A stretch of 31,861 nt of DNA, taken from Chiloscyllium plagiosum (taxonomy: Eukaryota). The translations under genes and the position numbers were made by a program. The DNA is taken from positions 50,650,747-50,682,607 of the forward strand of contig NC_057718.1 of assembly GCF_004010195.1 (NCBI RefSeq), in the 5' to 3' direction. The stretch's first letter is position 1, and each line of letters begins with the position of its first letter. Below, piece by piece: positions 2,419 to 20,569 of this stretch. Under the pieces are notes generated by a model, which saw only the letters and a list, made by a program, of their open reading frames with translations, did no database searches and was not told where the DNA came from.

Positions 2419-3637
2419 TAAAAATCACACAACACCAGGTTATAGTCCAACAGGTTTATTCAGAAGCATTAGCTTTTAGAGCACTGCTCCTTCAGTTGGT
2501 TGTGGAGTAGGAACATAAGACACAGAATTTACAGCAAAAGATTACAGTATCATGCAAGTAAAATGATATATTTAACTAACTCGATTGTTGTTCAACTGTT
2601 CATCTTTTAGAATGGGTTACAGGTTTCAATTCATTAGTATGTAAATCCCAGAACTTCTTTTAAGTCACATTCTCAAGATATGTTAGGGGTTCATCAAAAA
2701 AAAAGGTGCCATCTCAACTCAGGCAATGCCTTAAAAGGTGTAAGGTCAGAATCTGTCTGTATCCCAAACTTGACTCAGACTGGTTCTATTTCCAAAATGG
2801 AATTTACAAAATATTATATGGATTGACTGCCTGCATTGACTGCCTATGTGTTGTGTATTATTTGAGCAAAATAGAATGTATCTGTAAATGTAATTCTGCA
2901 AATTCAAATTCACCCCATAAACTTATATATGTATGTGCATGCAGGAGACAGAGGGAGGGAGTGAGTGTGTGCATATGAGTATGTGTAGTTCACTGTGAGT
3001 GCATGTGAGAGAGTTTGTACATGTGCAAGCTTGGTAAAGTGTATGTGTGAGTGTGATGGTGTATAAGCCTGTGAGAGGATGCACACGTGACTGTATGTGT
3101 AGGGGGTATATGTGTACGTGTATGAGGGAGAGCATGTGTATTAGAGAGGGCCTGTGTGAATGTGTGATGATGTAAGAGTGTATGTGTATGTGTGCTTGTG
3201 TATGTGTGAGAGAGTGTATAGTGTAGTGGGGTCACCTGTACTGTGATAGAACCAGTCTGACTCAAGATTGGGATACAGACAGACTTTGACCTCACACCTT
3301 TAAGGCATTGTCTGAGCTGAGATGTCACCTTTTTTCATAAAACCTTAATTTATCTTGAGAATGTGCTTTAAAAGAAGTTCTGGGATTTATGTTTTAATGA
3401 ACCAAAACTTATAACCCATTCTAAAAGACAATCGAGTTTGTTAAATATATCATCTTACTTGCATGACACTGTATTCTTTTGCTATAAACTCTATGACATA
3501 TAGTCCTACTCCACAACCACCTGGTGAAGAAGCAGTGCTACAAAAGCCAGTGCTTCCAATAAACCTGTTGGACTATAACATGGTGTTTTGTGATTTTTAA
3601 CTTTGTCCATCCCAGTCCAACACCTGCTCCTCAACAT
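2419..3637 (+). mobile_element. Non-autonomous Penelope-like element (family A) with inverted pseudo-LTRs
   Basis: 2419-2789 is the reverse complement of about 3246-3599. The right arm extends about 37 nt further. Degenerate HHR at 3518-3552 (CAC-CTGGTGA-A-GAAGC-AGT-GCTAC-AAAAGCCA-GTG). Flanked by caataatattac (2407-2418) and caataatattgc (3638-3649). Confidence 0.85.
2925..3230. repeat. Degenerate (TG)n/(AG)n low-complexity tract inside the PLE hairpin spacer
   Basis: Continuous gtgtgt/gagaga/tatgtg runs; explains the His/Thr-rich ORFs in the track. Confidence 0.9.
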
Positions 3638-12950: not shown

Positions 12951-13110
12951 CCTTGCAAGAGGATTCACAGTTAGGTTAAAATCAACTCGGTAAAAACAAG
13001 GACTGCAGATGCTGGAAACCCGAGTCTGGATTAGAGTGGTGCTTGAAAAGCACAGCAAGTCAGGCAGCATCCAAGGAGCTGGAAAATTGATGTTTCCTGA
13101 TTCATCAGGA

Positions 13111-13146
13111 TTCCTGATGAAAGGCTTTTGCCCAAAATGTCGATTT
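13111..13146 (+). ncRNA. Minimal type I hammerhead ribozyme motif, decayed
   Basis: CTGATGA (13114-13120), A, stem II AGGC-TTTT-GCCC, then AAAATGTC, which is GAAACGTC with two CpG-type transitions (one is G12A). Predicted cleavage after 13141. Confidence 0.75.
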
Positions 13147-13240
13147 TCATGCTCCTTCGATGCTGCCTGACTTGCTGTGCTTTTCCAGCACCACTCTAAT
13201 CCAGACTTGGGTTTCCAGCATCTGCAGTCCTTGCTTTTAC

Positions 13241-14867
13241 CTTTGGACCAACCCTTCCATGCTGTCCAGATATCCCAAAGCAATCTAATCCCAACTGCCA
13301 GCACCCAGCCATATCCCTCCAAACCCTTCCTATTCATATACTCACCGAAATGCATTTTAAATGTTGCAATTGTACTAGCCTCCACCACTTCCTCTGGCAG
13401 CTCATTCCATACACAAAACTCCATCTGCATGAAAAAGTTGCCCCTTAGGTTTCTTTTATATCTTTCCTTTCTCACCCTAAACCTATGCCCTCTAGTTCTG
13501 GACTCCCCGACCCCAGGGAAAAGACTTTGTTTATTTATCCTATCCATGCCCCTCATAATTTTGTAAACCTCTATAAGGGCACCCCTCAGCCTCTGACGTT
13601 CCAGAGAAAACAGCCCCAGCCTGTTCAGCCTCTCCCTATAGCTCAAATCCTCCAACCCTGGCAACATCTTTGGAAATCTTTTCTGAACCCTTCCAAGTTT
13701 CACAACATCTTTCCGATAGGAAGGAGACCAGAATTGCATATAATATTCCAACAGTTGCCTAACCAATGTCCTATACAGCCACAAGATGACCTCCCAACTC
13801 TAGTACTCAATACTCTGACCAATAAAGGAAAGCATACCAAATGCCTTCTTCACTATCCTATCAACCTGAGACTCCACTTTCAAAGAACTATGAACCTGCA
13901 CTCCAAGGTCTCTTTGTTCAACAGCACTCCCTAGGACCTTACCATTAAGCGTATAAGTCCTGATGAGATTTACTTTCCCAAACTGCAGCACCTCGCATTT
14001 ATCTGAATTAAACTTCATCTGCCACTTCTCAGCCCATTGGCCCATCTGGTCCAGATCCTGTAGGAATCTGAGATAACCCTCTTTGCTGTTCCTTCAATTT
14101 TGGTGTCATCTGCAAACATACTAACTATACCTCTTATGCTCACATCCAAATATTTTATATAAATGATGAAAAGTAGAGGACCCAGCACTGATCTTTGTGG
14201 CACAGGCCTCCATTCTGAAGAACAACCTTCCATCACCACCCTCTGCCTTCTACCTTTGAACCAGTTCTGTATCCAAATGGCTAGTTTTCCCTGTATTCTA
14301 TGAGATCTAACCTTGCTAACCAATCTCCTGTGAGGAACCTTATCGAACGCCTGACTGAAGTCCATATAGATCACATCTACCACTCTGCCCTCATCAATCC
14401 TCTCTGTTACTTCTTCAAAAAACTCAATCAAGTTTGTGAGACATGATTTCCCACCCATAAAGCCATGTTGACTATCCCTAATCAGTCCTTACCTTTCCCA
14501 ATACATGCACATCCTGTTCCTCAGGATTTCCTCCAACAACTTGCCCACCACCGAGGTCAGGCTCACCGGTTTATAGTTCCCTGGCTTGTCGTTACTACCC
14601 TTCTTAAACAGTGTCACCACGTTTGCCAACCTACAGTCTTCCGGCACTTCACCTGTAACTACCAATGATACAAATATCTCAGCAAGGGGCCCAGGAATCA
14701 GTTCCCTAGATTCCCAAAGAGTTCTCGGGTACACTTGACCAGGTCCTGGGGATTTATTCACCTTTGTGCATTTCCTCCTCTGTAATATGGCATTTTTCAA
14801 GATGTCACCATCTATTTCCCTACAATCTATATCTTCCATGTCCTTTGCCACAGGAAATACTGATGCA
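13241..14867 (-). mobile_element. 5'-truncated CR1 LINE (RT domain and 3' UTR)
   Basis: KPGNYKPVSLTSVVGKLLE, GKSCLTNLIEFFEEVT, DFSQAFDKVPH, FADDTKI, YRTLVRQLLEYYMQFWSP; frameshifted. Confidence 0.97.
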
Positions 14868-14892
14868 TTTTCTGTCCTGCCTCCATGGTTAT

Positions 14893-15006
14893 TCCCAAAA
14901 CGTCGATTTTGCTGCTCCTCAGATTGCTGCCTGAACTGCTGTGCTTTTCCAGCACCACTCTAATCTAGATTCTGGTTTCCAGCATCTGCAGTCCTTGTTT
15001 TTACCT
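14893..15006 (+). mobile_element. Solo PLE family B pseudo-LTR fragment
   Basis: cccaaaacgtcgatttt...gtccttgtttttacct is colinear with 13131-13241; retains only the 3' half of the HHR. Confidence 0.9.
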
Positions 15007-16351: not shown

Positions 16352-17216
16352 TGAAATAATAGTGCCATCCACAGAGACATAACCATTATCACTCAACTTC
16401 TCCACTCAAACTTCTTTGTTTCCCAATACTGCTCTCTAGTGGCTGGTGTGATTGGTGGGCAGAATGGCATTCAGATAGATTTTGTTGGTTGGTAGAGATG
16501 TGTGAGGCTTGTGAAGTGGGCAATTTGGGTGAGGCAGACGAGATGGGTAAATGGGAGAGGTGGATAGGTGTTAAAGTGAGTTTTTATGTGGTGGATCTGG
16601 CATATTCCAATCAAGTTGTAACAGAAGATGCAGTGGGGTGGGTGGTGTGGGGGTGACTGGCAGATAGTTGGGTAGTGGGACTAGTCAGTTTGGGCCAGGA
16701 CAGGGTAATCATTTGGTGGGGATTTAATGTGGTTGGGAAGCGTAATCAATGCTGTGATATTGCACTAAGAGTTGAGCATGCTAATGAAGCAGGGACCAGA
16801 ATAAGAACATGTGATCAGACTGCAGCAAAGCAGTTGTAACAGTATGCATGTATGCTTCTGTGGAATTGCATGTATTGAACTTCTGTAATTATTCTCTCTG
16901 ATGAGCAAACCTGTCTTAGATTTTCAAGCAAACTGTGCTGTTAACCAGCCCTGTATGAGAGTGATAGTTTTGTGAGAGGAAAATAACACAAGAAGCCTGC
17001 AGTTGTGTTAGGTCAGGAGGGGAAGTCAAGAGGTGGTCCTTTCTGGCCAGGAGTCTGTAATCAGGCGGTAGAGTATGAGTGAAATCTGAACACTGGTCAG
17101 GTCAGCTCTCAAGGGGTAATTTTTTGTTGGGGTTTCAGGGGCAGAAGGGTGGTTTGGCATGAGTTTGTGAGGGTAGCTGGTTTAGGTCAGAGAATATCAG
17201 GGGGTTGTCATGAGGG

Positions 17217-17279
17217 GATGATTTTCCTGCTCCTCGGATGCTACCTGACCTGTTGTGCTTTTCCAACACCATACTACTC
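17217..17279 (+). mobile_element. About 60-bp PLE family B micro-insertion with TSD
   Basis: gattttcctgctcctcggatgctacctgacctgttgtgcttttccaacacca matches 13142 onward; TSD ttgtcatgaggg (17205-17216) / ttgtcatggggg (17280-17291). Confidence 0.88.
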
Positions 17280-17756
17280 TTGTCATGGGGGTAGTCAAGT
17301 GGTCAGGTGTACTTGAGTTTCTAGGGCAGTAGTCAAGGGGTTAGTGTGAATGATTGGAATGTCAGCTCTGTAATTGTCCAAGAATCAAACTAGATATTTT
17401 TCTATCTAAGTTTTCCAAGATATGTACATGTTAAAGTACACCAGAACTAACATTAACTCAGAACTGGAGATACTTGTGAAGTGAGCAGAGGAACAGGGGA
17501 ATTATCCATGAACATGAAGACTTCCTGCAAAATTCCCACAGATGTTAACATTTGGGACTGCTGTAGGATCCCAATATCTAGAATGGGTCCATACATCCAG
17601 TCTCCAACAATCTGGAGACCAAGGTCAAAGACACTTGTAACAATTTCTAAAATTAAAAGTCAAATTTCCAGAATTAGATGAACTGTCTCTCTATCCCTGG
17701 AGTGAAATCAAGCCCAAGTATGTAGACTATTGTCCTCCGTATCGATACTGGCAATA

Positions 17757-18994: not shown

Positions 18995-19120
18995 CTGAAC
19001 TTGAAACTTTAACTCTGTTTTCCCTCCACAGATGCTGCCAGACCTGCTGAATTTCTCAGGTTCACCAGCAATTCCTGTTTTGATTCAGATCTTTAGCATC
19101 CACAGTTCTTTCATTGATAT
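18995..19120 (+). mobile_element. PLE pseudo-LTR fragment, third family (C)
   Basis: gaaactttaactctg (decayed GAAACGTT half of an HHR), then cagatgctgccagacctgctga...ccagca...agcatccacagttctt, distantly similar to family B. Confidence 0.7.
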
Positions 19121-19445
19121 TAAGAGTGTTTCCTAGTTTGTTTATTTTCATTTCTGTTATTAAACATTTTCGTTAGTTTTATTGTTAAAGCAGAAACTGC
19201 AACATTGCATACTTATCTTTCAGTATAACATTACCTTAATAAAACTAATATAAAATTAAAATAATGTGATCTAGCCAGCTAGGTTCCTGTTAGGAATCTA
19301 ACTTCTCCAGTATTCATGTTAACTGGACACTCCCCCGTAACATTTGGGACCATGTAATCATAGTAGGGACTTCATACTAATTTAACAATCCATCACTAGA
19401 TACTCGGAGCAGTGAGGAACCAAAGAGAGTCACCCTTCTCCACAG

Positions 19446-19563
19446 CTTTAATGCATTGTCTGAGCTGAGATGTCACCTTTTGTTCTAAACCTGTTGGACT
19501 ATAACCTGTATTGCATGATATCTAACTTTCTGCACCCCAGTCCAACATTTGCACCTCTACATC
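19446..19563 (+). mobile_element. Internally deleted PLE family A fragment
   Basis: gcattgtctgagctgagatgtcaccttt matches 3305-3332 and is joined directly to taaacctgttggactataac...cccagtccaaca (3560-3637). About 225 bp including the HHR is missing. Confidence 0.88.
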
Positions 19564-19674
19564 TTTAAATTTTGTACTTTTTAAAATTTGGAATGAAATG
19601 CTTAATTCCCAGGAAGTTACAAGGAAGGTTGTATATTTTGAAAGTGAGCAATTTGATGCCTATTGTGAACTCTG

Positions 19675-19776
19675 TTAAACATCTCACAACACGGGGTTAT
19701 AGTCCAACAAGTTTAATTGGAAGCACTATCTTTCGGAGCGTCGCTCCTTCGTCAGGTGATTGTGTGCTCTGTTTGG
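19675..19776 (-). mobile_element. PLE family A micro-insertion with perfect 15-bp TSD
   Basis: Colinear with 2419-2505; ctattgtgaactctg at both 19660-19674 and 19777-19791. Confidence 0.92.
19724..19758 (-). ncRNA. Minimal type I hammerhead motif, near intact
   Basis: Minus strand CAC-CTGACGA-A-GGAGC-GAC-GCTCC-GAAAG-ATA-GTG: core boxes intact, perfect 5-bp stem II, stem I CAC/GTG. Confidence 0.8.
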
Positions 19777-20424: not shown

Positions 20425-20569
20425 GTCGAGAGTGTGGTGCTGGAAAAGCACAGCAGGTCAGATAGCATCTGAGGAGCAGGAGAATCGACGTTTCGGGCAA
20501 CAGACCTTCATTAGGATTCCAGCACCACACTTTTGACTCTGATCTTCAGCATCTGCAGTCCTCCCTTTC
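20425..20569 (+). mobile_element. Mini PLE family B hairpin insertion
   Basis: Antisense arm 20425-20516 includes the HHR; sense arm 20517-20569; TSD ttccattacacta (20412-20424) / ttccagtacacta (20570-20582). Confidence 0.9.

Follow-up and report, generated by a model that had tools for sequence, protein, structure and literature searches.

The window, that is the whole analysed stretch of 31,861 nucleotides from Chiloscyllium plagiosum, contains at 17205..17291 a short insert which, judged by its relatives, is a target-duplicating stub of a Penelope-like element (PLE) of the RT/GIY-YIG type, copied from the leader of that element. Positions in the element family are counted from the predicted hammerhead cut, with +1 as the first base after GAAACGTC and -1 as the C of the GUC triplet. 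The parts of the insert and the other family copies in the window are:

17205..17216, plus strand: left TSD, ttgtcatgaggg, 12 bp with one mismatch between its two copies
17217..17219, plus strand: gat, likely hammerhead core -26 to -24, acquired by a template hop across -23 to -1 with GA microhomology
17220..17279, plus strand: PLE leader piece +1 to +60, gattttcc...catactactc, from the predicted hammerhead cut to the first internal RT-start cluster
17280..17291, plus strand: right TSD, ttgtcatggggg, whose first 3 nt also fit element +61 to +63
13110..13242, plus strand: plus arm of an inverted insert, a family copy that begins at the main 5' end of the family, -32, reaches about +100 and bears a hammerhead affected by CpG decay
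12989..13097, minus strand: inverted arm of the insert whose plus arm is 13110..13242
14894..15006, plus strand: family copy from about -11 to +100
20431..20518, minus strand: family copy, roughly -30/-32 to +60, which forms an arm of an inverted insert

The initial annotation had described a 12-bp TSD with one mismatch around gat and 60 bp of further sequence, and this description is borne out. The TSD motif TTGTCATGRGGG occurs twice in the window against a mean of 0.03 in shuffled sequences, none of 100 of which reached two occurrences, and random local draws, up to 20,000 in number but with some passed over by the script, yielded no comparable pair of 12-mers. Comparison with other copies places 17220 at family position +1, so that the 60 bp do begin exactly at +1 of the predicted minimal hammerhead as had been claimed, and the closest genomic relatives of 17220..17279 are 92-98% identical to it across 50-60 bases. 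The first three bases of the TSD at the 3' junction, TTG, are also element +61 to +63 in close relatives, and the 3' end of the insert may therefore lie anywhere from +60 to +63. A contig of DNA run X19 (17070-17248, with one difference, at 17132) spans the 5' junction and contigs of DNA runs X17 and X19 span the 3' junction, which argues against an assembly error at the insert, with the proviso that the sample behind the assembly may be among those sequenced in these runs. No empty-site joint was seen in the contigs of four DNA runs, the stub itself contains no ORF and the fold prediction for the insert gave no signal (z +1.08). For the other copies in the window the boundary positions given in the initial annotation stand, whereas the literal triplet context GAAACGTC before the cut is present only at 20487/20486; the contexts at 13141/13142 (AAAATGTC) and 14904/14905 (AAAACGTC) are both CpG decay of GAAACGTC. 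Taken as a single locus the insert is real and ordinary, and its 5' junction assigns it to a minor class of junctions in which cleavage has likely left its record.

A 32-mer from the family of the insert has 20,999 exact matches in the genome, and 142-174 family copies lie within 776 kb of evenly spaced stretches, which extrapolates to several hundred thousand copies in the whole assembly. Long copies extend upstream into the pLTR and then into ORF remnants with RT and GIY-YIG matches, namely an RVT_1 match (E 7.8e-7) in locus L303 that ends about 670 bases upstream of a hammerhead copy on the same strand and a GIY-YIG match (E 1.7e-4) in locus L276 upstream of a family copy, both of which fall just under the Pfam cut-off. 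Five of the seven upstream fragments searched for RT and GIY-YIG domains had no match and no intact ORF was found in the fetched DNA. These domain matches in relatives, together with the core motif of the ribozyme, support the earlier assignment to a PLE with a minimal type I hammerhead. An unselected sample of 222 copies was drawn from 1.75 Mb, made up of 80 spaced stretches and the flanks of fetched loci with the central 600 bases excluded, and weak or partial matches were dropped; 95 of the 222 are inverted copies. Their 3' ends fall into two clusters, at +55 to +70 (89 copies) and at +95 to +106 (104 copies), with two copies ending beyond +110. The clusters match the two internal RT starts of PAc (Poseidon of Anolis carolinensis), which lie downstream of the cut and define the tail and which PAc shares with the present family, as it does a hammerhead located where pLTR and ORF meet (Frangieh et al. 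2024; PMC11167929). This makes an internal start the norm of the family, and the proposal in the initial annotation that reverse transcription began about 60 nt past the cut holds accordingly, with the 89 copies of the first cluster ending there. TSDs are mostly 11-17 bp in many family loci; in L154, L239, L267 and L317 the left TSD ends in ATT or ATTT and overlaps element +2 to +6, which echoes the ATT cut preference of PAc.

The motif at -28 to -1 carries the published marks of minimal type I hammerheads, including a CUGANGA...GAAA core, a GUC triplet, helix II, a G10.1-C11.1 pair and a palindromic 15.2-16.2. The core with its extra nucleotide between 9 and 10.1, the G10.1-C11.1 pair, the palindrome and the lack of a helix III loop are all shared with the minimal type I hammerheads of metazoan PLEs, from which the present motif differs in that its helix II has 4 bp and its helix I is weak (Cervera and de la Pena 2014; PMC4209133). 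Across 113 copies the non-CpG bases of the core and helix II are mostly 86-99% conserved and CpG positions are lower. The four pairs of helix II form in the predicted fold and the palindrome reads A-C-G-U; helix I, which consists of C-G, U-A, a U-U mismatch and A-U, is absent from the minimum-energy fold and has almost no compensatory changes. A search with Rfam gave no hammerhead match in the window, and none of its RNA families, U6 included, matched 20 selected loci with a junction at or near +1 and a non-element or unclear partner.

Heavy 5' truncation, an adjacent inverted copy and a 30-40-bp tail are features that the family has in common with EN+ PLEs (Craig et al. 2021; PMC8557442), but its 5' ends are non-random, most of the clustering being at -32 and a smaller part of it at +1. 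Among the 222 unselected copies 46 begin at -29 to -33 and five at +1. The histogram of 5' boundaries suggested in the initial annotation, with its expected peak at +1, is upheld as regards a minor local peak, seen in the enriched samples below, but not as regards the main end of the family, and the expectation from R2-type elements, that most 5' junctions lie at the ribozyme cut, does not hold for this family, given the same five copies of 222. Loose ends of reads and contigs aligned to an intact copy likewise pile up at -32 and -34. The main product of the family retains the ribozyme. The 5' end at -32 is found family-wide, and in the window at 13110 and at about 20516-20518. It lies in a pyrimidine-A-pyrimidine setting that would resemble an initiator, an AT-rich box being located some 30 nt further upstream, and a transcript start is hence a plausible cause of the main 5' end, with -32 as the candidate transcription start.

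The minor peak at +1 was weighed in three enriched samples. Sample a comprised 171 copies without AAA at -7 to -5 (99 of 100 matches listed in one set and the first 36 of each of two others, from 2,171 matches in all), of which EM assigns about 50 to +1 (90% bootstrap 33-62); +1 is the sole position with an excess among the 11 in the range -4 to +7 (2dLL 18.7), and by class the value is 12.9 in 81 non-inverted copies and 6.4 in inverted ones. Sample b was made up of 200 matches listed of 2,883 that are intact from +1 to +19 and lack the T run, 194 of them used and six indel rows excluded. Tallied by eye and corrected for chance extension, it gives, among the matches listed, an estimate for +1 of about 50 true ends (30-70), while the positions -1 to -9 average 8, a ratio of 6 (3-12); the average over -1 to -12 is 11 and -1 alone has about 9. 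Scaled up, some 1,900 of roughly 80,000 matching copies would end at +1, or 2.4%. The GA site at -8 was removed as a control from sample b because the filter excludes its main partners, and sample c, in which the partner is held fixed, took its place. It draws on the first 100 of 630 matches, from which 31 sense and 50 inverted templated junctions were used, the remaining 19 rows being untemplated, complex or second arms; junctions were again tallied by eye and a simple model of microhomology length was applied. With microhomology length so modelled, +1 is 4.0-fold high among the sense hops (12/31 junctions, p=0.0015) and 1.95-fold high among the inverted joins (15/50, p=0.04). A minor excess at +1 is observed in the enriched samples, amounting on hand tallies and simple models to about 6-fold over -1 to -9 and to 2-4-fold after microhomology correction. 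Probably this excess is real beyond microhomology, and cleavage is the likeliest of the causes considered for it and would by itself be a rather probable one.

Raw exact-boundary counts, at 130 for +1, 41 for +2 and 69 for -2, overstate the excess because a subfamily with an extra G makes up 15 of the 38 in-order +1 loci; after filter correction about 75 remain at +1, compared with 37 for +2 and about 48 for -2, which is under about two-fold. Among the 23 in-order +1 loci that remain, 17 join an inverted arm, 14 of these with G or GA microhomology, and the other six consist of locus L357, which has a blunt +1 junction with an 11-bp TSD, one deletion with untemplated bases, and four loci with other or unclear partners. 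Fifteen loci with a simple TSD mostly show microhomology intervals or ends at +2 to +8, and about three of them admit +1. At the RNA level no pile-up of starts or ends was found at the cut in 2,798 reads of one poly(A) single-cell run, a type of library unsuited to cleavage, and 96% of these reads continue into other sequence; a second raw single-cell RNA run contained 0 family reads.

In the extra-G subfamily (L341, L344, L347, L350, L353, L358, L359, L361, L363-L365, L367, L373, L375 and L377) the additional base directly follows the cleavage triplet, and by inspection helix I then has four contiguous pairs, C-G, U-G, U-A and A-U, and no U-U mismatch. This mobile subfamily may possess a stronger ribozyme. 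Loci L379 and L380, which were chosen for their different downstream sequence, carry the extra G independently. The 1-nt insertion at the scissile bond had been considered as a non-templated base from a nick-crossing jump, an idea that was rejected since 15 of 15 in-order loci share the marks of one subfamily, and that is further ruled out by the presence of the insertion in both arms of inverted inserts.

The three bases gat at 17217..17219 equal core -26 to -24, and the GA that follows them can be placed at -23/-22 as well as at +1/+2. Genome-wide, 198 short joins span the ribozyme; among the 100 matches listed of these about 36, counted by eye, hop from +1 to -26, about 16 hop from +1 to -24/-22, which is the type of the 17219/17220 junction, and in about 27 the microhomology is TGC or GCT near +10. 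The most favoured reading of the insert, given a probability of roughly 45%, is that it was copied from a cleaved template and then hopped onto the core. Reverse transcription would start internally and target-primed at +60 to +63, as inferred by analogy with PAc; the cDNA would reach +1, run off the likely self-cleaved RNA and hop via the GA microhomology onto the ribozyme core, from which the three further bases would be copied prior to joining to the target. The hop itself does not discriminate between cut and uncut RNA since helix I would keep +1 beside the core in either state. The microhomology behind the hop is a GA of 2 nt, and junctions of this kind are also found at other sites. A single locus cannot show cleavage; the initial annotation had offered this insert as in vivo evidence of cutting, a question on which only the excess in the population bears.

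It is possible, with a probability somewhat lower than that of the cleaved template, that the RNA was uncleaved and that RT paused at the hammerhead fold, +1 being the end of helix I, and skipped helix II with the aid of the GA microhomology, in which case the +1 excess would be owed to structure and microhomology and not to cleavage. The GA at +1/+2 does find three frequent partners within the element, and direct joins are equally frequent at other sites, with 7 sense and 10 inverted at -8 and 10 inverted at -6 against 7 sense and 9-11 inverted at +1 among the first 100 of the 630 matches. Several junctions, moreover, still have GTC ahead of +1, which excludes cleaved RNA as their origin. The excess nevertheless survives the microhomology model and falls narrowly on +1 instead of extending over -1 to +4, and helix I is weak and not formed in the predicted fold.

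The version put forward in the initial annotation, a plain run-off at the 5' end made by the ribozyme, is not supported as stated and is improbable. It would require gat to be untemplated, slipped from +1 to +3, or the remnant of a longer TSD that has decayed. A blunt +1 insert with a TSD does exist in L357, and gat is identical to +1 to +3, so that a 3-nt duplication is conceivable and the templated reading depends on three bases. An untemplated triplet would match the core by chance in about 1 in 64 cases, however, and a 15-bp TSD needs three mismatches, two of them transversions. GAT, as templated by the core, is also the commonest triplet before apparent +1, -1 or -2 junctions (7/55, six of the seven preceded by TCCT), and the end at -26 lies within the main 5' shoulder of the family. 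Subfamilies with a different core or +3 base retain the upstream triplet at such joins, which speaks for templating and not for duplication. On these grounds gat is most likely a piece templated by the ribozyme core, and the junction one of break and hop.

The least probable course, an ordinary insert from -26 to +60 that later lost 23 bp by microhomology-mediated DNA deletion, can appeal to the overall rarity of such joins, 198 genome-wide, a rate inseparable from background DNA deletion, and to two of the seven GAT junctions (L172 and L173, both clean core-to-+1 junctions) being plain internal deletions in long copies, but it is very unlikely given that +1 is enriched after microhomology correction and that all 10 loci fetched for the sister class, which hops to -26, are complex inverted inserts, compared with a baseline of 95 in 222 (p about 2e-4), which points to formation at the time of insertion. 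In this class (L191, L192, L194, L196, L204, L209, L212, L214, L216 and L219) the plus arm holds only about -33 to -27 and then +1. The class that hops to -24 is mixed, with 4 of 7 inverted. Both arms of inverted inserts share private variants at L212, at L363/L364 and at L373, an indication that the two strands came from a single template molecule or source. At L349 the partner upstream of the +1 junction looks like the N-terminal region of the element's own ORF running in sense; the join at the cut would then be a permuted one, for which a circular or ligated RNA template is possible.

The element, its motif, its tail and its inversions are already known (PMC11167929, PMC4209133, PMC8557442, PMC7229834). 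Whether animal PLE minimal hammerheads cut in vivo, and to what purpose, is the open question that the junctions address (PMC4209133, PMC8557442, PMC11167929). For metazoan PLE hammerheads the data given by Cervera and de la Pena are in vitro only, with an inactive monomer and weak dimers, and in vivo evidence is stated to be absent (PMC4209133). The function of the hammerhead in EN+ PLEs is called unclear by Craig et al. (PMC8557442). For PAc, cleavage was unneeded for insertion in vitro and no RNA-seq reads begin or end at the cut according to Frangieh et al. (PMC11167929). That most insertions are copied from uncleaved RNA is common to PAc and the present family; the minor genomic excess at +1 and the recurrent hops from +1 to the core distinguish the latter, no genomic excess at the cut being described for PAc in the text considered (PMC11167929). 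The HDV-like ribozymes of R2 are comparable in that a cut marks genomic 5' junctions and that microhomology primes the second strand, but in R2 the cut sets the element's 5' end and its activity was shown in vitro, whereas here the predicted cut is internal, concerns about 2% of copies and is known from sequence alone (Eickbush et al. 2013; PMC3774820). The literature searched yielded no account of an enrichment of genomic junctions of PLEs at a hammerhead cut, a point on which the supplements of PMC11167929 (Fig. S2) and PMC4209133 may bear.

With odds slightly short of even, the genome may hold thousands of fossils of hammerhead-cleaved PLE RNA; copying would then have ended at the scissile bond in about 2% of copies, and RT could cross the nick by moving off the 3' product to the core of a 5' product that is still bound. 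By itself the single locus contributes little. If the genomic reading is true, it would amount to evidence, on the scale of a genome, that the minimal hammerheads of metazoans are active in the germ line within the RT complex and that the fraction they cleave can be measured, and the excess of junctions at the exact bond would serve as a readout of cleavage obtained from sequence only. The excess suggests that cleavage would be a minor side path beside the copying of intact RNA from -32.

Elsewhere in the window, 19024-19109 has a weak match to the core profile (E 0.001) and is read as a distant related family. A second repeat family with long inverted arms is present at 2419-3601 and 19441-19764 and is probably another family of the PLE type. 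Between two copies of the present family, 13243-14893 shows a strong negative GC skew and is presumably a reversed LINE-like fragment.
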